Below, piece by piece: positions 23,577-40,200 of a stretch of 64,000 bases of DNA. The position numbers and the translations under genes are program-made. How positions within the stretch are numbered: position 1 is the first letter of the stretch; the number at the start of each line of letters is the position of its first letter. The DNA lies in the NCBI GenBank assembly GCA_964655705.1, contig CAZZPP010000002.1, positions 32,231 through 96,230 of the forward strand, in the 5' to 3' direction. Below the pieces are notes generated by a model. It saw nothing but the letters and a program-made list of their open reading frames with translations. It was not told where the DNA came from and did not search any database. The DNA comes from an uncultured Candidatus Saccharibacteria bacterium. Lineage in GTDB: Bacteria > Patescibacteriota > Dojkabacteria > SC72.

Positions 23577-26500
23577 ATGAAATTAAGAAAGAGTAAGAGA
23601 GTAAAGTTTGAACAAATATCAAAGTTCCTTGAAAGAAGATTCCCTGAAATACTCTTAATATTACTCTTACTATTAATATGTATACTCTCTATTCAACCAG
23701 GTAAATATCTATTATCTAATGATAACTACTCTCCTGAACTTAACCCTACCCTATCAGTATCAAGATACTTAGAATCTCCAGCATGGAGAGGGTACAGGGT
23801 ACTGGGTTTTGCATCTGAGAGTGAACAGGCAGATGTGTTTAGATCTTTGTTCTATGTAGTTTTCAACTTATTTCTTCCTTCTTGGTTAATTAGCCAACTC
23901 TTTTATTTTGTTTCATTAGTCGTTGGCTCAATATGTATAGCGACATTACTTAGAGCCTTAGTTAAGAAGAGTAAATTAAAGAGATATTCAAACTGGGGTT
24001 ATCTATTAGGTGGTATTACATATTTTACTACACTTTGGAGTATGTGGCTCTTTTACCAGAACATGGCTCCATATATTGTTAATTTCGGATTTCTCCCACT
24101 ACTCTTGCTTTTTGTATATCGGTACTCTCGACAGGATAATGCAAAATATTTAATACTAATTTTGCTTTCCTGCATACTCTTAACTCCGACTTTTGTCATT
24201 GCGACCCTTTTCATTATTGATTTCATATTTATTTTCTCTTTTACAATATTTGTTAATTTTACATCTCGATATGGGAGAAGAAGAGAGATGAAAAACATAT
24301 TAATTACAATTGTGATTTTCTTGTTAACCCAATTATTCTGGATACTTCCTTTTATTCATTATACTTTTACAAATAGCTCGGACATTATCAATTCATATAC
24401 CAACAGGAGTATTACTTCTAATGTAATTGATTTGGAGAGTGATTCTCAGACCTTAATTAATTCAGCTAGGTTTTACAACAGGTCTCTTTTTGAGAAAGAC
24501 GGAGAGAGAGATCTCTTTGTTATGTCTGATTTGTATCTTACATATGATTTTTACAAGGTATTAGGTCTTTTTCCTGCTATATTTTCAATTATTGCTTTGA
24601 TATTTGGGTTAACTAAAAAGAACTTTAAATTACTCTTTTGGGGTGTAATTGGTCTTGTATCCCTTTTTTTAATTAAAGTACACAATCCCCCCTTTGGAGA
24701 AGTATTTAGATGGTTACAAGAGAGTGTTCCTCTCTTTAAGCAGGTTTTTAGATGGCCATTTTCTAAATTAGGACAAATATATCTAATCTGTATTACAGTT
24801 CTTTCTACTTTTGGGTATATATATTTAACAAGATTCTTTGCTTCATTCATAGAGAAGAAATTCTTGAAGAGAACCTTTATACTGGTTAGTTTTGTATCAA
24901 TGTGTATTATGCAATTAATATATTCTGAGTATATGTTTAGAGGAGATACCTTTGCAGACAGGGCAATGGTTGATGTCCCGAAGAGATATTTTGAATTGAA
25001 TGAATATCTCAAAGAAAATGACCCTACAGGTAGGATATATTACGCTCCTCCATCGAATAATAATTACTTTAGAGAGTATGAATGGGGATTTTGGGGTTCC
25101 CAATTCATCTCATATATTCTTCCAAACCCTGTAATGGATATTTCTTCTGCAGTAGGATCAGATGTCGGCGAGGATGCTATGCTTAGGATATCTAATGTAG
25201 TTCGTTCAGAAAAGAAGGACGAGTTCCTTTCATTAATGAATAGATATGATGTTAGGTACGTTCTTTTTGATGGGAGTATTGATATGGAGGGATATGCTTT
25301 TGAATTAGAGGAAGAGAAGGTAAAGGAATTGTTTGCAGATTTGGAGGTTGTTTGGTCAAAAGAGGATTTAGTGCTTTACAAAATTCCACTTACTCAAGAG
25401 GCTAAATATTCTGAATCATTATCAGAAATGGATTCTAAAGAGGTTTTTGTTAAAGATATCCCAAGATACCCTACCCTCTCTCCTTTGGATATGCAGTTAG
25501 ACAATGTAAGAATTTCGGATGGTGAAATAGTGGGAGATTTCGAGTATAGAGGGTTTAGTACATATATGTATTCAAACTTACTACCTGAATCATTAAATAG
25601 TTTACCCTCAAGGGTAATCTATTCTAATGGTAATATATTTGTCTATCCATCCTACCCGTATGTTAAGGGTGATATTTCAGTAAAACCATTTAAGCAGTAC
25701 GATGGTAGTTATGAGTATTTCTCTTTAGGCCAAAGAGTAGTAAGAAAGGATGAACTAAAAGGGGGCATTACGGTTCAAGAGGAGTTTAATGCCAAGAATT
25801 CAGTATATGGTTTTTCTGAGAGGGACTTTGTATCTGTAGATATGAATCCCCTTCTGTTTCTTACTAAAGGGAGTGATTGCTCGGGAGGAAATGTAATTGA
25901 AAACACTTTTGTTGAACCACAGGAAGTGTCCTCAGGATTCAATTTAAGAGGTAGTTCTGATTCTCCTTGTGTATATACTGGAATCCCCATAGATACGTCT
26001 AGAGGAGGAATTTTGGAAATTAGGATAAATTGGGAAGCAGATATGGGTAACTTCCCCGGGTTCTGTATATTTTCAAATACGCAGAACAAATGTCTCAACA
26101 AGGAGAAATTTCTCTCTTCTCAAAGTCCGTATGGAGATGTAGAGTACCTTTTAGATACACTTTTACAACCAGATGAGAGAGTGTCTCTCATATTGTATGC
26201 TTCAAACAAATCAAATGACAGTATATCAGAGGTATTGTTTAGGAGTGTAAATATTAAATTTGCCCCTCTTAAGACACCATTACAGTTAGTGTCCTCTTCA
26301 GATATATGGGAACCAAAGGATATTTTTCTAGATGATGGGAATATATATACAGTACATATCCCAATTGTCCTTGGTAATGCGGGATATCTCTACCAAGGAT
26401 TGGATTCACAATATTTAATATGGCAGCCAAACAGATCGGATTCTCAAAGTGAGATTTTTGATGTTTATGCTAATGATGGTCAATATCAAATAGTTCAAGA

Positions 26501-27194
26501 TGATTACATTAATCAAACAGCCAATCTTTTCATTACTAACCCTAATTCTAAGTATCTAGTGTATTGGAAAGGAGTGAATATATCCAATATTCCTTCCTCC
26601 ATATGCCTAATCTATGACAAAGAAGAGAAATGTTGGTTTAGTGATATGTTACTTAGTGATACTACCTCCTCGTACCTTAATGTCATAAATGTCAAAAATA
26701 CAGAGAGACTCTTAAATGTAATATATTCTAGTAATAGCCATAAACTAATAAGCCAGAATGTATTGAAAGAATTTCTACTAATGCAATTCCCATCCTCCTG
26801 GAAAAATCTAGAGTATATCCAAGAAACAGATAGTGAGTTTGAACAAAAAGAGATGAAGTCAGTTTTTAACTCCTTTAATTCAACATATTACAAAATACAA
26901 AGGGAGGATTTAGCAGATACAGACAATGTCATAATCTCAATACCCCAAGCTTCTAGTACAGGATGGGTAGCAATTGCTAGAAATGGTTTCTGGTTGTCTA
27001 CTTTAGGAAATGATACTCGTGTAAGTATAAAGGGGTGGAAGCAAGGCTGGGATATATCAAATGTTGAGTTTGATTCAATTTCTGTCCTCTATTGGCCTAA
27101 TCTACTCTCATACCTTGGATATATTTTAATATTATTAACAGGTACATACTTATCAATTAAGTTCATACAGGAAAGAAAAAATGGAAAAAAGTAA
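23577..27194 (+). CDS. Large polytopic membrane protein with about 800-aa extracytoplasmic C-terminal domain; candidate glycosyltransferase, function unknown
   Basis: About 12-14 TM helices in the first 450 aa, then a long soluble domain and a C-terminal TM. Overlaps the start of a GT2 gene. No diagnostic motif recognised. Confidence 0.35.
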   Translation: MKLRKSKRVKFEQISKFLERRFPEILLILLLLLICILSIQPGKYLLSNDNYSPELNPTLSVSRYLESPAWRGYRVLGFASESEQADVFRSLFYVVFNLFLPSWLISQLFYFVSLVVGSICIATLLRALVKKSKLKRYSNWGYLLGGITYFTTLWSMWLFYQNMAPYIVNFGFLPLLLLFVYRYSRQDNAKYLILILLSCILLTPTFVIATLFIIDFIFIFSFTIFVNFTSRYGRRREMKNILITIVIFLLTQLFWILPFIHYTFTNSSDIINSYTNRSITSNVIDLESDSQTLINSARFYNRSLFEKDGERDLFVMSDLYLTYDFYKVLGLFPAIFSIIALIFGLTKKNFKLLFWGVIGLVSLFLIKVHNPPFGEVFRWLQESVPLFKQVFRWPFSKLGQIYLICITVLSTFGYIYLTRFFASFIEKKFLKRTFILVSFVSMCIMQLIYSEYMFRGDTFADRAMVDVPKRYFELNEYLKENDPTGRIYYAPPSNNNYFREYEWGFWGSQFISYILPNPVMDISSAVGSDVGEDAMLRISNVVRSEKKDEFLSLMNRYDVRYVLFDGSIDMEGYAFELEEEKVKELFADLEVVWSKEDLVLYKIPLTQEAKYSESLSEMDSKEVFVKDIPRYPTLSPLDMQLDNVRISDGEIVGDFEYRGFSTYMYSNLLPESLNSLPSRVIYSNGNIFVYPSYPYVKGDISVKPFKQYDGSYEYFSLGQRVVRKDELKGGITVQEEFNAKNSVYGFSERDFVSVDMNPLLFLTKGSDCSGGNVIENTFVEPQEVSSGFNLRGSSDSPCVYTGIPIDTSRGGILEIRINWEADMGNFPGFCIFSNTQNKCLNKEKFLSSQSPYGDVEYLLDTLLQPDERVSLILYASNKSNDSISEVLFRSVNIKFAPLKTPLQLVSSSDIWEPKDIFLDDGNIYTVHIPIVLGNAGYLYQGLDSQYLIWQPNRSDSQSEIFDVYANDGQYQIVQDDYINQTANLFITNPNSKYLVYWKGVNISNIPSSICLIYDKEEKCWFSDMLLSDTTSSYLNVINVKNTERLLNVIYSSNSHKLISQNVLKEFLLMQFPSSWKNLEYIQETDSEFEQKEMKSVFNSFNSTYYKIQREDLADTDNVIISIPQASSTGWVAIARNGFWLSTLGNDTRVSIKGWKQGWDISNVEFDSISVLYWPNLLSYLGYILILLTGTYLSIKFIQERKNGKK

Positions 27195-28008
27195 TCCTTT
27201 GGTATCAATAGTTATACCTGTACATAATGGAGAAAAATATATTAATGAAAGTATAGATAGTTGTTTAGATCAGACATACAAGAATATTGAGATTATTGTT
27301 GTAGATGATAAGTCAGAGGACAGGACTTTAGAGATATTAAAGGGGTACAAGGATAGAATTAAGGTAATACCTGTTGAAAAACAGAATGGTTTAGGTAATG
27401 TAATAAATATTGGGATAAGAAACTCTAAGGGCAAATACATAGCTAGAATGGATGCAGATGATGTTATGTATCCTACTCGTATAGAGAAACAGATAGAGTA
27501 TTTAGAGTCTAATCCTAATTGTGTAGCTATTGGTGGTCAGATAGATATTATTGATGAGATTAGTAAAGTAACTGGTCATAGAGAGTACGCTATTGAGGAT
27601 AGAGATATTAAAAAGAATAGATTTCTTTTTCAACCTTTTGCACATCCAGCAGTAACTTTAAGAAAAAGTACTGTAGAAGATATTGGTTTGTATCCTGAGA
27701 ATATGTGGAAGGTTGAGGATGTTAAATTTTTCTTAATTCTAAGTACTAAGGGGGAGTATCATAATCTTGAGGATACTGTACTTAAGTATAGGATGACTTT
27801 TAAAACAGAGAGTCAATCTAAGATGTTAGATCATTTTAAAAAAACTAATGAGATACGCAAATGGGCTATTAAGGAGTTAAATATTAAACCTACTGTTAGA
27901 GAGTATGTAATATGGAATATGCAAAAGATAGGTGTTAGGGTTTTAAGTATTCTTCCTTCTACTCTTTTTATGAAGTCATTTGAATTGTTTAGAAAACTGT
28001 TTAAGTAA
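27181..28008 (+). CDS. Family 2 glycosyltransferase
   Basis: VSIVIPVHNGEKYINESIDSCLDQTYKNIEIIVVDDKSEDRT (GT-A DxD region, DAD later). Confidence 0.8.
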   Translation: MEKSNPLVSIVIPVHNGEKYINESIDSCLDQTYKNIEIIVVDDKSEDRTLEILKGYKDRIKVIPVEKQNGLGNVINIGIRNSKGKYIARMDADDVMYPTRIEKQIEYLESNPNCVAIGGQIDIIDEISKVTGHREYAIEDRDIKKNRFLFQPFAHPAVTLRKSTVEDIGLYPENMWKVEDVKFFLILSTKGEYHNLEDTVLKYRMTFKTESQSKMLDHFKKTNEIRKWAIKELNIKPTVREYVIWNMQKIGVRVLSILPSTLFMKSFELFRKLFK

Positions 28009-28676: not shown

Positions 28677-29138
28677 TTACTTGTAAACAGGCTTGTAGCC
28701 GGGGTCCGTGGTGAAAGGCTGTGCAGCAATGCATTCAAGAAATCGAGCTTCTTGATATTGGTACACATATGCACCTGCTGTATACTCCATAGGAGTCCCT
28801 TTTACAACATAGACATCGCCGGGATTTAATCCTTTTGGATCATAGACATAGTTGATTGTACAAAAAGTACAACTACCATCTTCCTTTACAGGAATCCCTA
28901 CGATTTCAGCCTGACACCAGCCAGTATTAACTTCTCCTGGAGCTGGTTCAACTGTGGTTACAGTTTGTTCACATGTAGGACACTCTTGGCATGGAGCAAT
29001 TTGGCATCCATCTGAAGCCATCAATCCTCCAATGTCGTAGCAAGCTGCGACATAGTCCTCTGAGAAATCCTTCTTCGCCAAGCAACATGCGCTTAAGCAA
29101 AGGGCCAATACGACAAACAAAACGACAATCTTATTCAT
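28677..29138 (-). CDS. Small cysteine-rich secreted lipoprotein
   Basis: Start at MNKIVVLFVVLALCLSAC (lipobox LSAC), preceded by AAAGGAGG. The mature part has about 12 Cys (CYDIGG, DGCQIAPCQECPTCEQ, WCQAEI, SCTFCT, ECIA). Confidence 0.6.
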   Translation of the reverse strand: MNKIVVLFVVLALCLSACCLAKKDFSEDYVAACYDIGGLMASDGCQIAPCQECPTCEQTVTTVEPAPGEVNTGWCQAEIVGIPVKEDGSCTFCTINYVYDPKGLNPGDVYVVKGTPMEYTAGAYVYQYQEARFLECIAAQPFTTDPGYKPVYK

Positions 29139-29349: not shown

Positions 29350-29636
29350 AGTTCATAAGAACTCATAAAAGATATTTAAAGAGAATATCTCTCTATGAAT
29401 ACTTATGTGTATTTGAATGAAAATTTATTATTAAAGAGCAGACTTTATTAACAATTAACTACTTATATTATACTATAGGTTGGAATAAATATCAATACTT
29501 GAAATAGGTTAGGTCAGGTTTATTTCTTAATGAGCAATTAATTATTAAGATACATATATTATACTATAAGTTTAGCAATTTTTCAATATTTCCTACTCTT
29601 CATAAATATTTAATACTCTTTTGTTAGCATTGAGAT

Positions 29637-30218
29637 ATGGTATCTAAATCATGCTATGTATTCATTGATTCATCTAATCTCTTCTATGGAGGGAAGAGAA
29701 GATTGGGATGGAGAGTAGACTATCTTAAGTTATTTAAATATCTAAAAAGAAGATATAGGATGAGAGAGATCTTCTATTATTCAGGAGTAGAAGCTCATGG
29801 TTTTGAACCTCTACTTTTATCGTTAGAGAGATATCCAGTAGAGAGTTTATACAAATATCTCCAAGAGGAGTTTAAGAAAGCAGATAGAGAAGAAAAAGAA
29901 TCCCTCCAGAAAGATATCTCTAGGGCGAAGTTTTTAAGAAAGATAGAAGAGTTTGGCTATACTCTTAGATTAAAACCAATTAAACATTTAAGAGATTTCA
30001 AAGGTAGGATAAAGAGTAAGTCTAATTGTGATGTTGATTTAACTCTTGATGCTATTAGATTGGAGAAAGAGTATGACACTTTTATACTGCTTTCAGATGA
30101 TGGTGATTTTGAAATACTTCTTGGATATCTAAGAGAAAAAGGGAAGACTATTGTAGTAATAGCAAACAGTGACAATACAGCAAGAATTATAAGGATAGAT
30201 ACCAAGGGAACTTTATAG
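29637..30218 (+). CDS. NYN-domain (LabA-like) putative ribonuclease
   Basis: YVFIDSSNLFYGGK..VDYLKLFKYL..IFYYSG and CDVDLTLDAIRLEKEYDTFILLSDDGDFEILLGYLREKGKTIVVIA match NYN/LabA catalytic acidic residues. Confidence 0.7.
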   Translation: MVSKSCYVFIDSSNLFYGGKRRLGWRVDYLKLFKYLKRRYRMREIFYYSGVEAHGFEPLLLSLERYPVESLYKYLQEEFKKADREEKESLQKDISRAKFLRKIEEFGYTLRLKPIKHLRDFKGRIKSKSNCDVDLTLDAIRLEKEYDTFILLSDDGDFEILLGYLREKGKTIVVIANSDNTARIIRIDTKGTL

Positions 30219-30255
30219 ATTTCTCTAGAATTAAAGAAGTAATTAAAGAATAAAA

Positions 30256-30290
30256 ATGGGAGGATCGCCCATATAGGAAGGTCCTCCCGA
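30256..30290 (-). terminator. Hairpin terminator (likely for the abiEii operon; possibly bidirectional)
   Basis: gggagga-N17-tcctccc stem. On the minus strand it is followed by ATTTTTATTCTTT. Confidence 0.4.
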
Positions 30291-30474
30291 GGTCTAGTGT
30301 TTAAGTATAATCTAAAGATTACTAATATTCAAGAAGATATTTATGAACAATGTAGGAGTGTAGAATAAGAAAAAGTGGCATTTACGGTCGGTCGAAACCT
30401 TAGATTAGTCCAGTTATGGTAATTCGCATATTGTATTTCTTTCTAAACGGTATCTCAGGACAACATTTTACATA

Positions 30475-31086
30475 TTACTTAACGGAAATATCTATAAGAA
30501 AGTTTTCTATCTCTTTATCTGAAGGAGGGTTATCAATTCTCCATATTACCTCTTCTGAATAATCAATATCTTCAAAATAGCACAACTGTTGTAAAAACAT
30601 TCTTTCTGAAAATATAGTACCATATATATCCTTGGCCTCTTTAATAATATCTTTTATGGAGTACTCCTTTAGCAATATATACATATCTACATAGTCTTTC
30701 CATTTTCCTCTTCTACCTAGTGTATATGCCTTCATTGCTCCTATTGTAAGTGGAGATGCAATAGAAATCTTCTCTTTTTTCTCTATGCCTTTTACTTTGA
30801 AAGGATATCTTAGAAATGTAATCTTAACAGAATTTATGAATATTGTATATTCATCTAATTTATCAATTACACTCTCTATATCCCTATATCCTAAATCAAT
30901 TAACTCTTTCAAAATATCTTCATTTTTAAATCCTTTGTAAGAAAACAAATCAAAATCTAGAGATTCTCTATGACCAAGTTGAAGAGCAAGTGCAGTTCCT
31001 CCAGCTAAGTAAAACCCTTTTTGCGAGAAATGTTCTACGATATTAAATACTTCAATCTGTTTTGGATTTAGTATGTATTTATGCAT
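30475..31086 (-). CDS. AbiEii/AbiGii-family nucleotidyltransferase (DUF1814) toxin-like protein
   Basis: FYLAGGTALALQLGHRESLDFDLF matches the AbiEii GGTAL..G.R.S.DLD nucleotidyltransferase motif. Confidence 0.75.
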   Translation of the reverse strand: MHKYILNPKQIEVFNIVEHFSQKGFYLAGGTALALQLGHRESLDFDLFSYKGFKNEDILKELIDLGYRDIESVIDKLDEYTIFINSVKITFLRYPFKVKGIEKKEKISIASPLTIGAMKAYTLGRRGKWKDYVDMYILLKEYSIKDIIKEAKDIYGTIFSERMFLQQLCYFEDIDYSEEVIWRIDNPPSDKEIENFLIDISVK

Positions 31087-31348
31087 TTCTCTTTAAATAT
31101 AGATCGATATAATTAATAACTAAAGGAGACAAGTTTGACCTTTTTTTGTTTCTCAGTTTAAAATATTCTTTTTGAAAATCTTCTTTTTCTTTTAACACCT
31201 CCCTTAGCTGGTTCATGTCACCATAGTTAAGAATTCTTTCAAGAATGGCTAGTTCGCTTAGTTTAGCAATCTTTTCTTTAGGGATATCCCAAAATATCTT
31301 GCTATTTCTTATAGATTCTCTCTTTAACAAAATTGAAAATGTATTCAT
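31079..31348 (-). CDS. Small partner protein of the AbiEii-like gene (candidate antitoxin/cognate regulator)
   Basis: 89-aa ORF overlapping the toxin-like gene by 8 bp in an operon-like arrangement. FWDIPKEKIAKLSELAILERILNYGDMNQL motif. Confidence 0.45.
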   Translation of the reverse strand: MNTFSILLKRESIRNSKIFWDIPKEKIAKLSELAILERILNYGDMNQLREVLKEKEDFQKEYFKLRNKKRSNLSPLVINYIDLYLKRNA

Positions 31349-31394: not shown

Positions 31395-32147
31395 TTATCT
31401 ATATTCCTTTAAGATATTTGTACTAAACACCCTACTCTCTTTCATAGATATCATAAAGATATCTTTAAGCATTCTACTAATATCTTTAATATTTGCAGAT
31501 GTAGAATCAGATCTATTCTTGTTTAAATAGAAAGGTACTACAGATACGTCATATCCTACCTTACCTATCTCATTTAATATCTCTGAGTCAATAGCAAATC
31601 TATTTACCTTTAAATTAGGTAATATTCTTTTTATCAAATCTCTTTTAAAGAGTTTTAGTCCACAACCTACATCTGTAATATTTTTAGGAAGTCTTAATAG
31701 TAATTTGTTTACAGCAATTAAACCGTAAGAGAAGATTTTTCTTCCAAATGTCATTTCAATATTAGAATCTTTATGTAGTTTAGAAGGTATAACAGCCATA
31801 ACATAGTCTTTTTTAATCTCGCGAATAGCAGAAGCTATAGATCTTATTTGGATATCTGTATCTGCATCAATGAATCCTATTACATCTCCTGAAGCTTTTC
31901 TCATTCCGTATCTTACAGCGTAACCCTTACCTTTGTTCTCTTTGTATCCATATACAAATGCCTTTTTAAGTCTGTTTTCTTTAATATACTGCTCTAATAT
32001 ATCCTTAGTATTATCAACATACCCATCAATTACGAAGATGAGTTCAAAGTCAGGATTTACTCTAGAAAGATATCCGTAGAGTCTTTCTAATTGATCCAAT
32101 ACTTCTCTTTGTTTTTTGTATGTTGGTAAAACCAAAGATATTTTCAT
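31395..32147 (-). CDS. Family 2 glycosyltransferase (polyprenol-phosphate sugar transferase-like)
   Basis: MKISLVLPTYKKQREV..ELIFVIDGYVDNT..GFIDADTD (DxD) GT-A signature. About 250 aa with no TM, like DPM1/GtrB-type enzymes. Confidence 0.7.
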   Translation of the reverse strand: MKISLVLPTYKKQREVLDQLERLYGYLSRVNPDFELIFVIDGYVDNTKDILEQYIKENRLKKAFVYGYKENKGKGYAVRYGMRKASGDVIGFIDADTDIQIRSIASAIREIKKDYVMAVIPSKLHKDSNIEMTFGRKIFSYGLIAVNKLLLRLPKNITDVGCGLKLFKRDLIKRILPNLKVNRFAIDSEILNEIGKVGYDVSVVPFYLNKNRSDSTSANIKDISRMLKDIFMISMKESRVFSTNILKEYR

Positions 32148-32184: not shown

Positions 32185-32210
32185 TTAAAAAAAATGCCCC
32201 AAAGGGGCAA
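32185..32210 (-). terminator. Rho-independent terminator downstream of the 78-aa gene
   Basis: tgcccc-aaa-ggggca hairpin. On the minus strand it is followed by ATTTTTTTTAAA. Confidence 0.6.
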
Positions 32211-32220
32211 TCTCTTACTA

Positions 32221-32457
32221 TTAGGCAAGAGATTGCTCTTCCTTAAGGCGTTTAACTGTAGACAATATAATCATTCCTGTAATAAATGTTACTCCAGCTG
32301 CAATGTAGAATATTGAGGTATCTTCAAAACCTGTTGGAATAGGTTCATGTCCGTAAGGGTTATAAGGCCCGTATGGATTACCATCTGCAAATACAGTTGA
32401 AACATTTATTAAGAAAGTAGTTGCTACAGCTAAAACTATTGCGAATAACTTCCTCAT
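32221..32457 (-). CDS. Tiny secreted protein with sortase-type C-terminal sorting signal (PIPTG + hydrophobic + KRLK)
   Basis: Signal peptide MRKLFAIVLAVATTFLINVSTVFA. Mature DGNPYGPYNPYGHEP. Then IPTG motif, a 20-aa hydrophobic stretch and a positively charged tail. Confidence 0.5.
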   Translation of the reverse strand: MRKLFAIVLAVATTFLINVSTVFADGNPYGPYNPYGHEPIPTGFEDTSIFYIAAGVTFITGMIILSTVKRLKEEQSLA

Positions 32458-32521
32458 ATTTAAAGGGCTAGTTAAATTAAATGCAGTATCATTATACTAC
32501 AACTAGCCCTAGAAGTCTATA

Positions 32522-33343
32522 CTATGGGTTGTATCCTCTCAAATACAATTCTAATATTTTGTTACTGTTAACCATCTCTTGTGCGTACTCGACCCCTAAG
32601 TATCTGTAATGCCAACTCTCAAATTTGTAGCCTGTAATATCTTCATATCCTTTGGGAAATGAAATTACAAATCCATATTTATATGCATTATTAATTAACC
32701 ATTTACTTGCCTTGGTATTTGCAAACTCATCCCCTAGCCTATCTCCTATTTCATTACTACTAAAATCTATTGCTGTACCAAGTTGATGTTGACTATGTCC
32801 TGGTCTTGCAGAGAATGTATCTACTAGTGCTACATTATTATTGTTTTTACTTAACCAGTAGTTATATGTACTTACCTGCGTTTGATATGATCTGTATGCT
32901 GATACAATGCTTAAATCCACTCCTGCAGCCTTAGAATCAGTGACTAGTCTTCTTAAATCAGGGATTAAAATATTTCGTAGGTAGTATCCGTCCCCTCTTC
33001 TAATACCAGAATTACTTGCTTTAACTAAATCCGATGGAGCGTATGTACTTGGTAAGTTATACTGTTTGTTTACTAATACAAGTAAATCATTCCCACTTCT
33101 TTTTGTAGTAAGTATTTCAGTTGGGTATTCCCACCAGTTACTATTTTCTGTAGTGGTATTCATCTTTTCTGTTACTTCTTTAACTTTCTCAATCTTAAAT
33201 GTATCAGTTGAGGGATTCTCAATCCACTCTACCTCTTGTATATTGTTGTTCTCAGTATCTTTCTTTAGGATTAGATCTACTGTTTTAGCGGGAAGGAAGA
33301 AGGTTAAAATTAAAAGAATTGAGTAGATTAAAGCCTTTTTCAT
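32522..33343 (-). CDS. D-Ala-D-Ala carboxypeptidase / peptidase M15B (VanY-like)
   Basis: LLVLVNKQYNLP..YAPSDL, SAYRSYQTQ, RPGHSQHQLGTAIDF, SWHYRYLG: all VanY/M15B zinc-site motifs. N-terminal signal/TM. Confidence 0.75.
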   Translation of the reverse strand: MKKALIYSILLILTFFLPAKTVDLILKKDTENNNIQEVEWIENPSTDTFKIEKVKEVTEKMNTTTENSNWWEYPTEILTTKRSGNDLLVLVNKQYNLPSTYAPSDLVKASNSGIRRGDGYYLRNILIPDLRRLVTDSKAAGVDLSIVSAYRSYQTQVSTYNYWLSKNNNNVALVDTFSARPGHSQHQLGTAIDFSSNEIGDRLGDEFANTKASKWLINNAYKYGFVISFPKGYEDITGYKFESWHYRYLGVEYAQEMVNSNKILELYLRGYNP

Positions 33344-33381
33344 AGTGCATATTTTACAATATTTGGTATAAGGAAGAAAGG

Positions 33382-34074
33382 TTACTCTTTAACCCTATTT
33401 GCATATCTAAATATCCTTTCAGGGGTACTGTAGTATTTACAGGTATACAGGATTAGGTCTGCACTGTAGTCGGTAATGTATGTACCAATATCTCCATCAT
33501 ATATTTCATATATATATTCTCTTTGATTCCAGTATATACTGACTCTTGTTCCTGATTTAGTATCTGGGAGTTTGTAAAAGGAGATTAAATTTCTTTTCGA
33601 AGTACTCCAACTTGAGTATCCGAATCTGTGTGCCGCTAGTATTATTGGCAAGCTATCATTTTCTGGTGTCCCAAAATCATCTACTATCCAAGTACCTTTA
33701 GTGAGAGCTTTCCTGTAATCTTTAGTAGGCGTAATTGGAGAGTTTATACCTACACTTGGGATTAATACAAAATAGCCTTCTGGTAAATTGGGATCAAATG
33801 GAGGGACCTTATTTTCTTCAATGGGTTCCTTCTCCTCGATTTCTTCCTTGTCATCAACAATATCTTTGGAGATCTTTTCTTCATCTATTTCTACTGCGTC
33901 TGGGTTAAGTCTATACCAGATATATGGGGCTGTTGGTATAGCTATTAATACTAGAGTAATCAAGATGAAGAGAAAACCTATTGTTTGATATATTTTTAAC
34001 AATTTCTCATATTGTTTACCTTTTTTCATACATTTATACATTATCATATATATATGATAATGAAAAAGGTCCAT
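33382..34074 (-). CDS. Sortase-family transpeptidase
   Basis: N-terminal TM. LIPSVGINSPI, ILAAHRFGYS (catalytic His), SIYWNQREYIYEIY, LILYTCKYY (TLxTC-type catalytic Cys). True start is probably an internal Met (MKKGKQ, near 34029). Confidence 0.7.
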   Translation of the reverse strand: MDLFHYHIYMIMYKCMKKGKQYEKLLKIYQTIGFLFILITLVLIAIPTAPYIWYRLNPDAVEIDEEKISKDIVDDKEEIEEKEPIEENKVPPFDPNLPEGYFVLIPSVGINSPITPTKDYRKALTKGTWIVDDFGTPENDSLPIILAAHRFGYSSWSTSKRNLISFYKLPDTKSGTRVSIYWNQREYIYEIYDGDIGTYITDYSADLILYTCKYYSTPERIFRYANRVKE

Positions 34075-34198: not shown

Positions 34199-34393
34199 AT
34201 GATTAAAAGAGATATGGAGTTAGAACAATTAAGGATTTCAATAGAAGAGAATTTTAGAATACTGGGTAACAAAATATCTCAAAATGATCAGAGGATAAAG
34301 AGGGTATTAGAAAAGATTGAGCAAGATAGTATCAAATACAATCATACCTATGACATGAATGATATTAAGATAGTTTCCTATTTAGATAACTAG
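34199..34393 (+). CDS. Small hypothetical protein (doubtful)
   Basis: 64-aa ORF in the intergenic space before gyrA. Coiled-coil-like sequence, no support beyond the ORF. Confidence 0.2.
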   Translation: MIKRDMELEQLRISIEENFRILGNKISQNDQRIKRVLEKIEQDSIKYNHTYDMNDIKIVSYLDN

Positions 34394-34394
34394 A

Positions 34395-37202
34395 TTACAT
34401 AAGTGCCATTGTAGCTACTTTGTCACCTTCTCCGATATTCATTACCTTTACTCCACTTGTTTGTCTTCCTAATGTAGGTATCGCGTCTATTGAAGATCTT
34501 ATAACTTTCGATTTTTCTGATATTACAACTATCTCGGCCTCAGGGTGATCAAGTATTCTTGCTACTGCAACTTTTCCTGTCTTAGGTGTTACTCTAAAAG
34601 TAAATATACCTGTACCACCTCTTTTCTGTTTAGTATATTCAGATAGTTTTGTCATTTTACCGTATCCGTTTTCAGAGAGAGTAAATATTCTATTTTCATT
34701 TGCTCTAATTACTCCCATACCTACTATGAAGTCAGTTTCTGTTTTAAATTTCATAGCCGTTACTCCTCTGGTACTTCTACCTAAGGGTCTTACATCTTTT
34801 TCAGTAAACCTAATAGATTTCCCTTCGGCAGTTACCAATATTATCTCATCGTCTCCAGTAGTTGGTTTTACCCACGTAAGCTCATCATTGGTTTCTAATT
34901 TAATTGCTGTTAATCCGTTTGCTCTAATCTTCTCAAACTGAGAAAGATCTGTCTTTTTAACTATTCCACCTTTGGTTACCATTAAGAAGTATTTAAAATC
35001 CCTTTTCTCAACTACTCCATTTAAATCTTGGTTCTCTTGTATTTCCTCTGAGCCCATTACACCACCTTTAGGATCTCTAGTTAATATGGAAGTAATTATT
35101 TCATTCTGATCAAGTTGTACAAGATTTATTAAAGGAATACCCTTAGCGGTTCTCCCATACTCTGGGATTTCAAATATTCTAGTACTAAATACACGGCCTT
35201 TATTAGTAAATAGAAGTAATTCATCGTGGGTATTACAAAGTAGTACATGCTCTATGAAATCACCCTCTTTGGTATCACCACCGGATATACCCTTTCCTCC
35301 TCTGTGCTGTGTTTGATAGGTTGAAGGAGGTACTCTTTTTACATATCCTGAGTGAGTTATGGTTATTAATGTTTCTTCCTGTGCAATCATATCTTCCTCT
35401 GATATTTCATTTATCTTCCCTTTTACTACCTTTGTTCTTCTTTTATCTCCGTAAGCCTCTTTTATTGCCTTCAAATCATTATCAACTATCTCAAGTATCC
35501 TATCCTGACTATCTAAAATATTGTTGTATTCAATGATATTTTGCTTTGTTTCTTTGTAATCATTTTCTAACTTCATCCTCTCTAGTGCTGCTAGTCTTCG
35601 AAGTTGCATATCTAAAATTGCTTGAGCTTGAACTTCTGTGAATTTGAATTTGTCCATTAAGTTTGTTTTGGCAGTTTCTTGAGTTTTAGAACCCCTGATA
35701 GTTGCGATTACTTCATCAAGGAAATCTAAGGCCTTTAGAAGTCCCTCTAAGATATGTGCATGATATCTTGCCTCTGCTAGATCATACTCATATCTCCTAA
35801 TTGTTACTGTAATTCTAAAGGAGAGGAATAGTTCTAACATTCTCTTTATGGAAAGGGTAATTGGTTCTTGCTCTACTAATGCAATCATATTTGCATTAAA
35901 GGTTTTTTGCATCTCAGTATATTTATACAGTTTGTTCAGAACTGTTTTAGGTTGTGCATCCTTTTTTAGAACGATTACCACCCTTATACCATCCTTGTTT
36001 GATTCATCTCTAATATCTGCTATTCCTGTAATCTTTTTGTCACGCACAAGGTCAGCAACCTTCTCTATCATATATGCCTTGTTTACTTGATATGGGATCT
36101 CTGTTACTACAATTTGGTATCTTCCATTTTTACCCTCAACTATTGAGGCTTGAGCTCTTTGTAAAATCTTTCCTCTTCCTGTTGCATATGCATTTAATAT
36201 CTCATCCCTATCATATATTGTTCCTCCTGTTGGGAAATCTGGGCCAGGAATAATTTCAATTAACTCTTCTGGGGTTATATCTGATTTGAAGTCAGGATAT
36301 ATTACCTCACCACTTTTCTCAATCCTGTCTACTATCTCTTGAATCTGAATAGCATATTCTAGGGATTTTGTATCTACATAGTTTTCTAAGTATTGCTCAG
36401 GTCTTGCGTTTAAGGTCTGAGGTATTATCTCGTCTTTCTCTTTACTCTTTCTTAACTCATTGTATATTGCAACTCCTTCCCATCTGTTCTTTCTCTTAAT
36501 CATTTCAGACAGTGCGTCTACTAGTTCCCCAATATTATGTGGAGGTATTTGTGTTGCCATACCTACTGCAATACCTTGGCTACCATTTGCCAAAAGATTA
36601 GGGAAAAGTGCAGGTAATACAGTTGGCTCTAACCTAGTACCATCATAGTTAGGAACAAAAGTAACTGTTCCTTTGTTTAAATCTTTAAGAAGTTCAGGAG
36701 CAATCTTACCTAGTCTGGCTTCGGTGTATCTCATTGCTGCTGCAGGGTCTCCATCTATGGATCCGAAGTTACCCTGTCCTTGTACAAGGATATATCTTGT
36801 AGAGAACTCTTGAGCGAGTTTCACTAATGTCGGGTATACTACACTCTCTCCATGGGGGTGGTAGTTACCAGAGGTGTCACCTGCAATCTTTGCACATTTC
36901 CTAAAATGAGAGGTAGGACTTAGCGAAAGGTCGTTCATTGCAACCAGTACTCTTCTTTGCGAAGGCTTAAGTCCATCTTTTACCTCTGGTAGTGCACGAG
37001 CAACAATTACAGACATGGAGTAATCAATATAGTTGGATTTCATCTCATCTACTATTGATCTTTGAGTTACCTCTCCTGGTTTAAAAGTTAAATCAAAATC
37101 AAGATCAGAATCTTCTACAGAAGGAGCAGATTCTACTGGTTCTTGATTTTCAATTTCAATTGTCTCTTCTGCTTTCTTAATTATATCTTCTTTGTCTGGC
37201 AT
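34395..37202 (-). CDS. gyrA: DNA gyrase subunit A
   Basis: Active-site region ARALPEVKDGLKPSQRRVL. Tyr-containing AAMRYTEARL. C-terminal beta-pinwheel repeats. N-terminal acidic extension of about 50 aa. Confidence 0.9.
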   Translation of the reverse strand: MPDKEDIIKKAEETIEIENQEPVESAPSVEDSDLDFDLTFKPGEVTQRSIVDEMKSNYIDYSMSVIVARALPEVKDGLKPSQRRVLVAMNDLSLSPTSHFRKCAKIAGDTSGNYHPHGESVVYPTLVKLAQEFSTRYILVQGQGNFGSIDGDPAAAMRYTEARLGKIAPELLKDLNKGTVTFVPNYDGTRLEPTVLPALFPNLLANGSQGIAVGMATQIPPHNIGELVDALSEMIKRKNRWEGVAIYNELRKSKEKDEIIPQTLNARPEQYLENYVDTKSLEYAIQIQEIVDRIEKSGEVIYPDFKSDITPEELIEIIPGPDFPTGGTIYDRDEILNAYATGRGKILQRAQASIVEGKNGRYQIVVTEIPYQVNKAYMIEKVADLVRDKKITGIADIRDESNKDGIRVVIVLKKDAQPKTVLNKLYKYTEMQKTFNANMIALVEQEPITLSIKRMLELFLSFRITVTIRRYEYDLAEARYHAHILEGLLKALDFLDEVIATIRGSKTQETAKTNLMDKFKFTEVQAQAILDMQLRRLAALERMKLENDYKETKQNIIEYNNILDSQDRILEIVDNDLKAIKEAYGDKRRTKVVKGKINEISEEDMIAQEETLITITHSGYVKRVPPSTYQTQHRGGKGISGGDTKEGDFIEHVLLCNTHDELLLFTNKGRVFSTRIFEIPEYGRTAKGIPLINLVQLDQNEIITSILTRDPKGGVMGSEEIQENQDLNGVVEKRDFKYFLMVTKGGIVKKTDLSQFEKIRANGLTAIKLETNDELTWVKPTTGDDEIILVTAEGKSIRFTEKDVRPLGRSTRGVTAMKFKTETDFIVGMGVIRANENRIFTLSENGYGKMTKLSEYTKQKRGGTGIFTFRVTPKTGKVAVARILDHPEAEIVVISEKSKVIRSSIDAIPTLGRQTSGVKVMNIGEGDKVATMALM

Positions 37203-37206
37203 TACT

Positions 37207-40200
37207 TTAAACGTCTAAATTAGCTTTCTTAGCATATCTTTGAATGAATCTTCTTCTAGGAGGTACTTCACTTCCCATTAACATCTCAAAAGTTTTTTCA
37301 GCTTCCTCTGCATCTTCAATATGTACTCTCTTTAGGGCCCTGTTTTCTGGATTCATAGTGGTTTCCCATAACTGATCCGGGTTCATTTCTCCTAATCCCT
37401 TAAATCTGTTTGCTACAGGTGTTTTACCAGCGTTTTTAGCTTTCTTAACAAAAGCATCCTTCTCGTTATCATTTAGGAAGTAGTATTTCTTCTTACCAAT
37501 TTCTACTTTGTGAAGAGGTGGTTGTGCAACGTAAATATATCCTTGCTCTATTAAAGGCTTAAAGAATCTAAAAAGGAGTGTAAGTACCAATGTAGTTATA
37601 TGTAATCCATCTACATCTGCGTCACTCATTATTATTACTTTATGATACCTTAGCTTGCTTATATCAAGTGTTGTACCAATTCCCACCCCTAATGCTGTGG
37701 TAATATCTTTAAACTCATTGTTTCCCAGGACCCTATCTACCCTATATTTGTTTGTATTGATTATCTTACCTCTTAGAGGAAGTACAGCTTGAGTATGCCT
37801 ATCTCTACCTTGTTTAGCACTATTATGGACAAAGACCCCACTTGCAAGGGCAAAGTTATGTGTTTTTGGTACTTCCAAATCAAATACATCTATTTTTTCT
37901 TTCAAATATTCTATTGATACAATTTTATGATTAAAGTGTTTAACAGCATCTTCTAATCTCGCCATATCATTATCAAAAAATCTACTACATAGTGTGGGGA
38001 CTTTGAGTAGAGTTTTGTTGTTTAAATCTCTTCTTACCTTGTTATATGCTTCAACAGAAACCTCACCGAAAGTATCGTAGACAGATCTAAGGACTTTTAG
38101 ACTCCTGTCAAGATATGTCCTGTTGTACGCTTTTTTTCTTTTAAGTATAAATTCTTCAGTCCACTGCTCTTTAGTTTTTTCAGAGCGCCATTTAAGAAGT
38201 TCCACATTACTCCACTGCTTCTTGGCAGAAATGGATAATTTCTCTAAAGCCTCTGGGTTGTTTTTTAGATATTGAGAGACTTTTTTAGATTGTTTAAAAC
38301 GATTCTCTTTTTTACTCCAATACTCTTTTTGGAGAAGATTTAGTCTTCGATTGTTTTCTTTTTGATATTCTTCATTGGTGAAATAGAAGGCAAGGAATTT
38401 ATTCTTCATATATTCCTTGTACTCCTCGTTCTCCCACTGTTTCTTAGCATTCTTACTAAGAAGAGACCTTGTTGATGGTTTAAGCATTGAGTTTCTCATC
38501 TTCTCCTTAAACTCAGGGCTGCTTCTTAATACTCTAAGTTTCTCATATACTTGCTTAGTATGGAGGGTCTTTGCTATATGTTTCTGATGTATTACGAGAT
38601 GGTCTTCCTTGCTTAATCTAACAATATTGTTTGGATTATTATTTAACTTATTAAAATCTTTATGATGTTTGTAGGTACCCTCGAAGTTTTTGTATACATT
38701 ATGTCCCAAGTTATATTCATCTGACAATACATGTGTAAACACCCATTTTGAACTGGAGGGATTTAATACCATCTCATAGCCTTCTATTGTGATTCTTCCT
38801 TTTTTCTCTGACAATTTCTTGTACAAAGGCATAAGGGAGTCATGCTTGGAGAGATCTTTAGCTTTCTTGTATGACCCATCTCTAAGCATGAATTTGTGGT
38901 CAGGTGTACATACAATTTCCTCTCTGTTATCTAAAGTAACTTTAATAACTGGAGTATTTCTTTTTGTTCTTCTTACGTTTTGGATTTCTGAAATTGATAC
39001 CTTTCTACTATCTGTAATTGTATAGCAGTAGTTCTGTTTACCTTTCTTCTGCTCTTCAATTAATTCTAAGAAAGTCAAAGACCTCCCATCTGCAAGAGAC
39101 ACTCTTGTATCTCCAGAAAAACATCCACCGGCACTATCGCCTTCCACAATATACAGTTCAGAATCTTTAGGATCATTGCTAATACAATCTGCTAATTTAC
39201 CTGGTAAAGTAGTACTCTCTAATGCACTCTTTCTAATGACTGCATCTCTTGCTGCTTTAGCAGCAGCTTTTGCTTTGTAAGAAAGTATTGCTTTGTCTAA
39301 AATGGATTTTGCCTCCTTAGGATGTTCATCTAAGTATACTAGTAGTTCATCTCTAATTACTTTAGCTACAGCATTTTTAACCTCTGGATTATTTAACTTT
39401 ATTTTTGTTTGACCCTCAAATTGAGGATTTGCTACTTTAACAGATACTACTGCAGTTAAACCCTCTCTAACATCATCTCCATTTAAAGAGGTTGTTAAAC
39501 CTTTAAGGAGATCGGATTTCTGAGCATACGAATTAATTGCACTTGTAAGAGCAGTTCTAAAACCTGAAAGATGGGTACCACCCTCTGGATTTATGATGTT
39601 GTTAGTATAGCAGCGGACATTTTCATCCATTCCATTAGTGTATTGAATCGCAGATTCTACAATAATTCCATCTTGGTCTTTTTTAACATAGAAGGGGATA
39701 TCATTTACGAGTTTCTCGTCTATGTTCATAAACAGGACATATGACTTAATACCATCCTCAAAATACACATCAAAGATCTTAGGATCCTTACCCTCCTCTA
39801 CTCTTTCATCAAGAAGGGATATTCGTAGTCCTGCTGTTAGATATGCATGTTGTCTACATTTTTTAACTAACTCTTTGAAATCAAAATCTGTTTGCGTAAA
39901 TATCTGACTATCTGGCATAAATCTATGTTCTGTACCAGTTTCATTCTCAACACTCCCAACCTTTTTAACAGGTGCTTTCGGGATACCTCTTTGGTACTCT
40001 TGTTGATACACTCCACCATCTCTTCGTACAGTGGTAATCATCCATTCTGAGAGAGCATTAGTACATTTCATACCGACACCATGAAGACCTCCAGAAACTT
40101 TGTATGCACCCTCTTCAAACTTCCCACCTGCATGTAGATTAGTCATTACAGTTTCTAGTGTAGAAACCTTTGTCTGAGAGTGAATTTCTACTGGTATTCC

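Follow-up and report, generated by a model that had tools for sequence, protein, structure and literature searches.

What does a sortase attach when the candidate substrate encoded in its neighbourhood has a predicted mature part of only 18 residues? Sortases have been reported from over half of the CPR genomes, and among Microgenomates they are almost universal (PMC6744442); the literature we searched notes their presence alone and names no substrate of a CPR sortase. We analysed a locus that could supply one, in a window of 64 kb (the whole stretch of DNA under study). A sequence-only reading had proposed a sortase beside a substrate-like mini-protein, with a VanY-type peptidase in the cluster, and this core is supported by homologues, fold and synteny. 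The three ORFs do lie on the same strand, the minus strand, as that reading had it; the sortase and the M15B enzyme are, however, not immediately downstream of the small ORF but precede it, transcription running from the sortase through VanY to the small ORF. The features of the locus are:

31395..32147, minus strand: GT2 glycosyltransferase, a conserved downstream neighbour in Dojkabacteria, not universal
32187..32209, minus strand: terminator-like hairpin TGCCCCTTTGGGGCA followed by T8, 12 nt past the stop codon of the small ORF
32221..32457, minus strand: putative mini-substrate gene (small ORF), 78 aa, with signal peptide, mature peptide, motif, helix and tail
32224..32313, minus strand: hydrophobic helix I49-V68 and basic tail K69-A78 (KRLKEEQSLA), from the family layout
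32329..32349, minus strand: sorting motif H37-E-P-I-P-T42-G43 with predicted cleavage at T42/G43, from the family alignment
32332..32385, minus strand: predicted mature peptide DGNPYGPYNPYGHEPIPT, D25-T42, 18 residues, from sequence reading and family layout
32386..32457, minus strand: predicted Sec signal peptide M1-A24, cleavage after V-F-A, read from the sequence
32491..32528, minus strand: small-gene promoter, CCCATAGTATAGACT + 17 nt + TATAAT, the best promoter-like site of the region
32522..33343, minus strand: VanY-family (M15B) D-Ala carboxypeptidase, 273 aa, PF02557, with an N-terminal signal or anchor
33382..34074, minus strand: divergent sortase, from homologues, fold and catalytic residues

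A mini-protein with the layout of a sortase substrate

The small protein runs, in order, MRKLFAIVLAVATTFLINVSTVFA, DGNPYGPYNPYGHEPIPT and G FEDTS IFYIAAGVTFITGMIILSTV KRLKEEQSLA. Read by eye, its predicted signal peptide combines a basic n-region (MRK), a hydrophobic core and small residues at -3/-1, and every member of the family shows the same succession of n-, h- and c-regions, with an A-x-A-like site. The mature part, predicted as D25-T42, agrees with the 18 residues proposed earlier and equals the family median (18 aa, range about 10-25); the shortest members would retain some 10 residues, for example DGYGHTPVDT. These peptides are rich in Pro, Tyr and His, and a cargo this short has no obvious function. 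The helix begins 0-6 residues past the Thr in most members, and the tail has a net charge of at least +1 in 129 of 139 scored sequences.

The family comprises 148 unique sequences and is matched by no Pfam or NCBIfam (release 20) model. The window protein has 46 close homologues; the family forms 54 clusters at 50% identity, all of small proteins, and an exhaustive profile search of 1.84 billion proteins returned matches of 43-116 aa only. Against close gap-free orthologues, to which the calculation was limited because internal indels make distant pairs meaningless, dN/dS is 0.18-0.44. With this conservation, and with a combination of features that is unique in the window, the small ORF is far beyond chance. 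The C-terminal signal is kept in all orthologues examined, as would be expected if the earlier reading of a conserved small gene were correct.

Across 147 aligned sequences the family consensus is H-x-P-[VIL]-[P/D]-T-G, with H in 143, P in 146, T in 146 and G in 120; cleavage is predicted after the Thr. In 27 of the 147 members the residue past the Thr is S, A, D or F instead of Gly, which makes this position looser than in most sortase signals. The PIPTG of the window protein had been called a sorting signal, and its architecture bears this out; it is not a canonical LPXTG, since Pro and the hydrophobic residue are swapped, Pro standing at the X position and Ile in the place of Pro. The small ORF stays below threshold for the established sorting-signal profiles (Gram_pos_anchor PF00746, 14 bits vs 20; TIGR01167, 13 vs 15.9), and TIGR01167 gives weak matches in only 5 of 58 family members. 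A precedent for a phi-P-T-G core is the QVPTG of FctA from Streptococcus pyogenes, which is served by a specialised sortase (PMC11231552, PMC4049620), and this pilin signal is the closest known one to H-x-P-phi-[P/D]-T-G. As a predicted signal, H-x-P-phi-[P/D]-T-G is a new sorting motif.

No ORF of the window other than the small one joins P-[ILVM]-x-T-G to both a hydrophobic helix at the C terminus and a basic tail. Regular-expression searches of the window and of related loci totalling 1.13 Mb hit the small ORFs and out-of-frame noise but no other sorting-signal protein, and the small-ORF profile search of 1.84 billion proteins returned no large protein with an H-x-P-phi-[P/D]-T-G signal. 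The further candidates for which the earlier reading had suggested a search were thus not found in the window and the related loci; their absence fits a dedicated pair and does not refute one.

A divergent sortase as its neighbour

The sortase gene probably starts at M12 (position 34041), as in its homologues, which yields a protein of 219 aa with an N-terminal membrane helix, an acidic linker and a beta-barrel. The window protein itself falls below curated cut-offs: it has no Pfam match at E <= 0.1 and reaches 16 bits against TIGR01076, whose cut-off is 39.35. Among 30 homologues (49-76% identity), PF04203 is matched by 24, with a best E of 9.6e-12, and TIGR01076 by 29; most homologues also carry a precomputed PF04203 annotation. 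Sequence searches of the PDB with the protein and with its profile gave nothing significant. The AF2 model (pLDDT 88.4) gave 125 Foldseek matches in the PDB at E <= 0.001, and the best 50 of these 125 are all sortases, with a probability of 1.0 and target TM-scores of 0.5-0.73. Against class A and class C sortases the E values are about 2e-8.

The catalytic residues, whose failure to align had been named as a reason to abandon the idea, are in place. H138 (in AAHRFGY, 33628-33630), C201 (in LILYTCK, 33439-33441) and R209 (33415-33417) together with R212, both in RIFRYA, are invariant in the 30 sequences, and hhalign places AAHRF on AGHTF and LYTC on LITC, which brings the His and the Cys onto H120 and C184 of Staphylococcus aureus SrtA. 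The window protein is a predicted sortase on the combined basis of homologues, fold and catalytic residues. Scoring against class models, the form in which a placement among classes A-F was attempted, gave no assignment: the best scores were 16-26 bits (classes C and D) against cut-offs of 140-165, class E was weaker, A, B and F did not match, and the sortase fits none of the six.

Linkage, promoter and neighbouring genes

Loci were gathered by a genome scan with alignment of the sortase, and 68 informative species-level genomes carry its clade. In 60 of them a member of the small-ORF family lies downstream of the sortase on the same strand, so the pairing anticipated from synteny holds in relatives; the distance is below 400 bp in 39 of these 60 loci, and in the remainder the small ORF sits behind an intervening VanY. 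Most linked genomes are Dojkabacteria, joined by Chisholmbacteria and Nomurabacteria, whose loci keep the pair of sortase and small ORF though the other synteny is gone. Coming from the opposite direction, distant small ORFs stand in 9 distinct contexts, and in 8 of these a sortase of the same clade is adjacent or close by.

The small gene has a conserved promoter of its own. Its promoter scores 10 of 12 matches, the top of the region, and the element CCYATAGYRT...TATAAT stands upstream of 61 of 75 unique small-ORF loci (sortase, 1/85; VanY, 0/59; GT2, 0/64). Of 64 loci, 19 have a terminator-like site behind the small ORF (sortase, 1/76; VanY, 0/56), and the leader is conserved along with the promoter. 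A separate strong promoter suggests a demand for the small product that far exceeds the demand for the enzymes, and the gene is, judging from these sequence elements, probably strongly expressed and its product abundant. A hairpin in the leader, AGGGCTAGTT/AACTAGCCCT (z = -3.96), was considered as an RNA element and rejected: its 3' arm alone is conserved across loci, and its 5' arm falls between the -35 and -10 boxes and hence outside the transcript from the small-gene promoter. A second CCTATAGTATAAT unit was likewise rejected as an rRNA or other RNA gene: no Rfam family reached its gathering threshold, and at E <= 1 there was only hairpin-like noise. The unit is followed by a Cys-rich lipoprotein, which is not conserved.

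That the small ORF is no real gene, or that its adjacency to the sortase is coincidental, is hardly credible and already contradicted by conservation and linkage. The idea could draw on the lack of a Shine-Dalgarno sequence (0 of 78) and of a curated family match, but it has to contend with 148 unique conserved sequences, the low dN/dS, the conserved promoter and leader, and the tie to the sortase, which spans several CPR lineages and holds in 60 of 68 loci.

Of the 68 loci, 51 have a VanY gene no more than 3.5 kb away from the sortase. That the one of the window encodes a VanY/M15B protein, also part of the earlier reading, is confirmed by PF02557 (E = 6e-38; 130 bits against a cut-off of 25; profile positions 3-131 of 132) and by the metal-binding His/Asp/His motifs in SQHQLGTAID and ESWHYRY. 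With this match and its H-x6-D and W-H motifs the protein resembles the LdcB/VanY (M15B) carboxypeptidases and is LdcB- and VanXY-like, yet its scores do not come near the equivalog cut-offs for LdcB, VanXY and VanY (113 vs 275; 100 vs 250). We know of no description of a conserved genetic link between VanY and sortase. In 36 of 60 loci the next gene after the small ORF is GT2. GT2 was rejected as the primary partner: its adjacency is confined to Dojkabacteria-like loci, whereas sortase adjacency is general. The adjacency of VanY and GT2 could largely be inherited synteny within one lineage.

These neighbours bear on a rather unlikely alternative, in which the small protein is never cleaved and serves as a single-pass membrane subunit, tether or regulator of the sortase, VanY or GT2, its likeness to a sorting signal being superficial. 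A GT2 enzyme beside a small membrane protein recalls the small membrane partners of DPM1-type GT2 enzymes, and the GT2 that so often follows here has no obvious membrane segment; the non-canonical motif, the variable position past the Thr and the conserved helix and tail would also fit such a role. The universal partner is, however, the sortase and not GT2, and the pair occurs with neither GT2 nor VanY in four loci (L075, L076, L078 and L079). The spacing between the invariant Thr and the helix is short and fixed, just as sorting signals have it, the cytoplasmic tail would comprise only about 10 residues, and the separate strong promoter suggests that far more of the small product is required than of the enzymes.

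A candidate route for a short peptide to the cell wall

The reading that we prefer, with a probability of about 0.6, is that sortase and substrate form a dedicated pair by which a short peptide is placed on peptidoglycan. This reading builds on the observed gene family, its layout and motif, the fold and catalytic triad of the sortase, the genetic linkage and the separate promoter. The 78-aa protein would be made abundantly from its own promoter and exported by Sec with removal of the signal peptide, and its C-terminal helix and basic tail would retain it in the membrane. There the adjoining membrane-anchored sortase (Cys201, His138, Arg209) would recognise H-x-P-phi-[P/D]-T-G, cut after the invariant Thr, that is, between Thr and Gly, and pass the remaining Pro/Tyr/His-rich peptide of 10-20 residues to an amine of a cell-wall precursor, presumably the stem peptide of lipid II. 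The wall may end up with many copies of a short peptide in place of a folded protein. Any functional coupling to VanY would lie in the stem peptides, from which this carboxypeptidase may trim the terminal D-Ala. The pilus base, the cross-bridge modifier and the lipid II decoration offered in the earlier reading are candidate functions. Several features speak against a dedicated pair, namely the non-LPXTG motif, the loose residue after the Thr, the sub-threshold profile scores of small ORF and sortase, the conserved helix and tail, and a cargo too short to suggest a function.

Measured against the SrtA/LPXTG system of S. aureus, the CPR pair shares a substrate with predicted signal peptide, short motif ending in Thr-Gly, hydrophobic helix and basic tail, and an N-terminally anchored beta-barrel enzyme of the same fold with His, Cys and Arg. 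It differs in that Pro and the hydrophobic residue of the motif are swapped, a conserved His stands two residues further upstream, the cargo, at about 10-20 residues, is shorter than its own sorting signal and the enzyme matches no class A-F model. Single-target 'boutique' sortases form another known arrangement, in which one sortase serves one neighbouring target, for example a marine proteobacterial sortase and its vWFA target (NCBIfam/TIGRFAMs descriptions). The CPR locus resembles them in its pairing of a single sortase with a single target that is adjacent, co-conserved and equipped with a non-standard signal; their targets are, however, large proteins, and the CPR small-ORF family is absent from NCBIfam release 20 and Pfam.

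The FCT pilus system of S. pyogenes, whose sortases SrtC2/SrtB act on QVPTG(V) of FctA/T-antigen (Barnett et al. 2004, as cited in PMC11231552; peptide in PMC4049620), has the same deviation from LPXTG, with a hydrophobic-Pro-Thr-Gly core and an adjoining specialised sortase. Its substrates are large folded pilins joined via a pilin Lys, whereas the CPR protein has neither a folded domain nor a conserved Lys, and the CPR sortase does not match class B models. In a further alternative, the peptide is indeed a product of the sortase but serves as something other than plain decoration of the wall: it could be polymerised head-to-tail via its conserved N-terminal x-Gly amine into a minimal sortase-built fibre, or be cyclised or released as a signal, or the functional product could be the C-terminal membrane fragment that is retained. 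We consider this unlikely, although it can appeal to a predicted mature N-terminus of [D/S/A]-G in roughly 70% of the family, to a nearest motif (QVPTG) that belongs to polymerised pilins (PMC4049620, PMC11231552), to top fold matches that include class C pilin polymerases, to an unusually conserved helix and tail, and to the strong separate promoter. The fold search does not, though, tell class C and class A apart, and no class model fits; the N-terminal residue is mostly Asp, Ser or Ala, not Gly. The family also lacks the marks of a sortase-assembled pilin, its mature part being too short for a CnaB-type Ig-like domain and containing no conserved pilin-motif Lys for an isopeptide linkage (any Lys occurs in 57 of 147 mature peptides, at a variable position, the x of H-x-P). 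The conserved VanY neighbour (51/68) points to the wall and not to a fibre or signal.

A dedicated pair acting on the wall could also be part of a CPR-specific peptidoglycan-remodelling module, which we regard as quite improbable. The sortase would load the highly expressed ribosomal peptide onto the free amine of the stem peptide, where the peptide would either cap acceptor sites or act, via its conserved N-terminal [D/S/A]-Gly amine, as an interpeptide bridge in cross-linking, while VanY would remove the donor D-Ala. If so, wall architecture would be set partly by a gene-encoded peptide and not by bridges that Fem-type enzymes or ligases build.

For the preferred wall-decorating pair, a sortase almost always found beside a strongly promoted gene with a tiny exported product suggests that what these cells fix to their wall is probably a very short peptide and no protein, and a cargo smaller than its own sorting signal, odd as it is, implies a wall decorated or modified by short peptides. 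This would be relevant to the ways in which episymbiotic ultra-small bacteria form their surface and make use of it. The locus provides a concrete, conserved and probably abundant candidate substrate for a CPR sortase, and with it an enzyme-peptide pair open to direct testing, from organisms that so far do not grow in isolation; the motif and the compact sortase could furthermore interest users of sortases for protein ligation.

The helix and tail are better conserved than is usual for a throwaway sorting signal, with G61 in at least 90% of the family and a tail pattern K-x-L-K-x-K. This conservation hints that the C-terminal part of the small protein may have a separate role of its own.

A divergent sortase beside a small, probably exported protein

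Three minus-strand genes occupy 32221-34074 of the window, flanked by gyrA and by GT2, a glycosyltransferase gene:

37202..34395, gyrA, beyond the sortase end of the cluster
34074..33382, minus strand, sortase-like ORF, 230 aa
33343..32522, minus strand, VanY-family peptidase, 273 aa
32457..32221, minus strand, small ORF, 78 aa
32147..31395, GT2 glycosyltransferase, beyond the small-ORF end of the cluster

The window has a G+C content of 34.7%. Most closely related to it are metagenome-assembled genomes with the label Candidatus Dojkabacteria (WS6), which belong to the CPR/Patescibacteria. Taxon labels are used as deposited; many read 'uncultured Candidatus Saccharibacteria' or even 'Pseudomonadales', and those were treated as unreliable.

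The neighbour of VanY and the small ORF is a sortase, though a divergent one. It has no Pfam Sortase match, gave no match in PDB sequence searches and scored 16 bits on TIGR01076 (cut-off 39.35). Its 646 homologues at E <= 0.001 mostly carry PF04203; in a sample of 30, PF04203 matched 24 (best E = 9.6e-12) and TIGR01076 matched 29. The putative catalytic residues H138 (AAHRFGY), C201 (LILYTCK) and R209/R212 (RIFRYA) are invariant in the alignment of 30 sequences. In an AF2 model (pLDDT 88.4), a disordered acidic linker joins a long N-terminal helix to a beta-barrel. Foldseek matched the model to class A and class C sortases (probability 1.0, E ~2e-8), and hhalign aligned the enzyme's His and Cys with H120 and C184 in S. 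aureus SrtA. Class-specific NCBIfam models gave 16-26 bits against cut-offs of 140-165, and the enzyme therefore falls into none of classes A-F as currently modelled.

The small protein, MRKLFAIVLAVATTFLINVSTVFA / DGNPYGPYNPYGHEPIPT / G FEDTS / IFYIAAGVTFITGMIILSTV / KRLKEEQSLA, begins with a predicted signal peptide; the 18-residue mature part and Thr-Gly motif that come next are followed by a hydrophobic helix and then a basic tail, a combination found in no other ORF of the 64-kb window. A word-indexed search returned 46 homologues (46-100% identity, nearly all 76-81 aa), in whose alignment P34, P39, P41, T42, G43, F44, T47, F50, Y51 and S76 are invariant and the signal-peptide core varies freely. 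When 1.84 billion representative proteins were searched exhaustively with a profile, 54 clusters matched at E <= 0.001, all of small proteins (43-116 aa), and no large protein with the C-terminal region of the small ORF was among these matches. Pooling of database matches with ORFs of related loci resulted in a family of 148 unique sequences, which no Pfam or NCBIfam model describes and which LPXTG-anchor models match below threshold only. The family is real and conserved, with dN/dS values of 0.18-0.44 against close, gap-free orthologues; this conservation excludes, to near certainty, that the small ORF is no genuine gene or stands beside the sortase by coincidence.

Genetic linkage of sortase and small gene

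The strongest evidence is genetic linkage. Two peptide patterns taken from the alignment of sortases were used to scan one genome per species (185,579 species), which yielded 154 relatives; 80 loci were kept and annotated with profiles built for this analysis. Handles such as L001 and L076 denote related loci from other genomes. The sortase was recovered in 75 loci, with enough downstream DNA in 68, and in 60 of these 68 a family member follows downstream on the same strand. A sortase beside a substrate-like mini-protein, as the sequence-only reading had it, is a confirmed observation, and the core of that interpretation is supported; its gene order, with sortase and VanY downstream of the small ORF, is reversed, as transcription in the window runs from the sortase first to the small ORF last.

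Gene orders in the paired loci
VanY-sortase-small-GT2: 20 loci
sortase-VanY-small-GT2 (as in the window): 13 loci
VanY-sortase-small: 13 loci
sortase-small: 6 loci
sortase-VanY-small: 5 loci
sortase-small-GT2: 3 loci

The small ORF lies within 400 bp of the sortase in 39 of the 60 paired loci and after an intervening VanY in the remainder. The pairing is kept even where nothing else of the arrangement is, as in the loci that bear the labels Chisholmbacteria (L076) and Nomurabacteria (L086). Eight sortases, the most divergent of all, are unpaired, and several of them have rho and an M23 peptidase downstream in place of the small ORF. In the reverse approach, which started from distant small ORFs, 8 of 9 distinct contexts had a sortase of the same clade next to the small ORF or close by; these included members with Asp after Thr (L009, L094, L096). 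The genome CSSed10_113R1 (PWIP01) encodes two sortase paralogues of the clade, one paired with a mini-substrate and one not (L079 vs L085), which fits a dedicated enzyme. VanY is located within 3.5 kb of the sortase in 51 of 68 loci, in either relative order; the gene after the small ORF is GT2 in 36 of 60 loci, all of them Dojkabacteria-like.

Sorting motif and possible fate of the peptide

Alignment of 147 family sequences on the Thr (position 0) revealed His at -5 (143), Pro at -3 (146), Val, Ile or Leu at -2 (129, otherwise mostly Glu), Pro (86) or Asp (52) at -1, the Thr itself (146), Gly at +1 (120, otherwise S, A, D or F) and F/L/I at +2. The family signal is therefore H-x-P-phi-[P/D]-T-G-phi, where phi is a hydrophobic residue; it is not LPXTG, since Pro and the hydrophobic residue are exchanged relative to L-P-x-T-G. 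The earlier 'PIPTG' gave the five residues correctly, but its middle Pro occupies the variable -1 position.

Predicted mature peptides have a median of 18 residues, and the shortest, DGYGH[T/I]PV[D/E]T (L067, L069, L073, L077), about 10; these lengths are approximate because cleavage sites were set by a simple -3/-1 heuristic. An N-terminal [D/S/A]-G, one to three P-Y repeats and the His recur in them. The longer members L078 (171 aa) and L092 (112 aa) are extended by a Thr/Pro-rich stretch; in these two and L076 a Cys-flanked Y-G-G-G loop precedes the shared H-x-P-[V/I]-D-T motif. L090, missed by the profile, is a diverged member with H-E-V-V-E-T-G. The loop reads Cys-x-x-[VF]-Y-G-G-G-x-V-C in longer or divergent members (L076:8743-8991, L078:8438-8977, L090:3007-3300, L092:6770-7108), some with an N-terminal Thr/Pro-rich stretch; this points to a version of the same anchored module that is closed by a disulfide.

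Among known signals, QVPTG(V) in the S. pyogenes pilin FctA comes closest. It is handled by a specialised neighbouring sortase (PMC11231552, PMC4049620), so phi-P-T-G can be a sortase signal. FctA-type substrates are large pilins, in contrast to the predicted 10-20-residue cargo here, and the CPR enzyme showed no class B similarity. The system is CPR-wide and combines a probably dedicated sortase with a new motif and a predicted cargo of fewer residues than its sorting signal; neither Pfam nor NCBIfam includes it, and we found no description in the searchable literature.

We consider it reasonably probable (about 0.6) that the paired sortase attaches this peptide to an amine on the stem peptide of either lipid II or the wall. 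The small protein would be exported by Sec, lose its signal peptide and be held by helix and basic tail; the sortase would then recognise H-x-P-phi-[P/D]-T-G, form a thioester at the Thr carbonyl and pass the 10-20 residues to the amine. Anatomy, enzyme identity and linkage are the observed parts of this mechanism, whereas its putative cleavage site, acceptor and VanY role are modelled on established sortase biology. The unusually conserved helix and tail and the pilin-like motif might instead indicate that the peptide is processed but does not serve as a simple decoration, being polymerised head-to-tail or cyclised via its conserved N-terminal x-Gly, released as a signal, or yielding a functional C-terminal fragment; this appears rather unlikely, as the mature part has no conserved Lys in the 147 sequences and the VanY link points to the wall.

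Expression signals and neighbouring genes

The region's best promoter-like site (TAGACT, 17 nt, TATAAT; 32519..32491) lies directly upstream of the small ORF. Across loci, the conserved pattern CC[C/T]ATAGT[A/G]TTGAC, ~17 nt, TATAAT precedes the small ORF in 61 of 75 unique upstream regions, compared with 1/85 for the sortase, 0/59 for VanY and 0/64 for GT2. Instead of a Shine-Dalgarno sequence (0/78), the small ORF has a conserved leader, AACTAGCCCTTTAAATATG. A hairpin followed by T8 is located 12 nt past its stop codon, and terminator-like sites follow it in 19/64 loci (sortase 1/76, VanY 0/56). These assignments are consensus matches backed by conservation. An own strong promoter and terminator amid enzyme genes are what one expects if the product is needed far above enzyme amounts. 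Such a layout for high expression also speaks against a small protein that is never cleaved and acts as a bitopic partner of envelope enzymes, a reading favoured by a motif that departs from the canonical one, by the variation at +1 and by how closely GT2 adjoins the small ORF in Dojkabacteria; with the sortase rather than GT2 as universal partner, and an invariant Thr at sorting-signal distance from the helix, we regard it as distinctly unlikely.

The small gene's -10 box sits between the arms of a perfect inverted repeat of 10 bp, AGGGCTAGTT...AACTAGCCCT (32458-32530, minus; RNA fold z = -3.96). Only the 3' arm is strongly conserved across loci, and the repeat may be a palindrome of operator type, not a structure formed in RNA. 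The CC[C/T]ATAGT element is shared with a second transcription unit a few kb downstream (29431-29570, minus), where it is fused to the -10 box (CCTATAGTATAAT) and which has counterparts at ~55 sites in related loci (e.g. L001:8251, L008:7764, L012:6925). About 15-25 nt past it lies CTGCTCTTTAA, which we take to resemble the E. coli rrn boxA antiterminator TGCTCTTTAACAA; the small ORF's leader TAGCCCTTTAAAT is also boxA-like. In the window the promoter/boxA-like element is in tandem (29570..29527 and 29479..29431), followed by a ~290-nt leader with several hairpins, no ORF and no Rfam family found. Behind it, a Cys-rich predicted lipoprotein (MNKIVVLFVVLALCLSAC..., 28677-29137, minus) has a good RBS (AAAGGAGG); it is conserved in just 3 related loci, and the leader is therefore the conserved part.

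Between gyrA and the sortase, a 64-aa ORF (34199-34393, plus) lies just past the gyrA 3' end on the opposite strand. ORFs of 61-75 aa are likewise placed in L001, L004 and L008, and in L006, where gyrA is not annotated, a 61-aa opposite-strand ORF lies just ahead of VanY; none of these has a Pfam match. The 1074-aa gyrB (37207-40431, minus) contains an intein (PF14890, residues 444-870) ahead of its Toprim domain. Between GT2 and the second unit (29637-31348) lie genes for an AbiEii-type nucleotidyltransferase toxin (31086..30475) and its small DUF6922 partner (31348..31079), and an NYN-domain gene (29637..30218, plus); in other loci an NYN gene is found at differing positions. Synteny is otherwise kept in this region, and these genes resemble mobile insertions. 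A conserved 1205-aa protein (23577-27194, plus; no Pfam match, a weak GT-C AftD match in a homologue) overlaps a second GT2 gene (27181-28008, plus). With the GT2 beside the small ORF, these two genes point to a cluster for extracytoplasmic glycosylation, located a few kb away from the sortase unit. A tyrosine recombinase/phage integrase gene (19414-20832, plus; PF00589, E = 7e-33) is located ~11 kb from the cluster.
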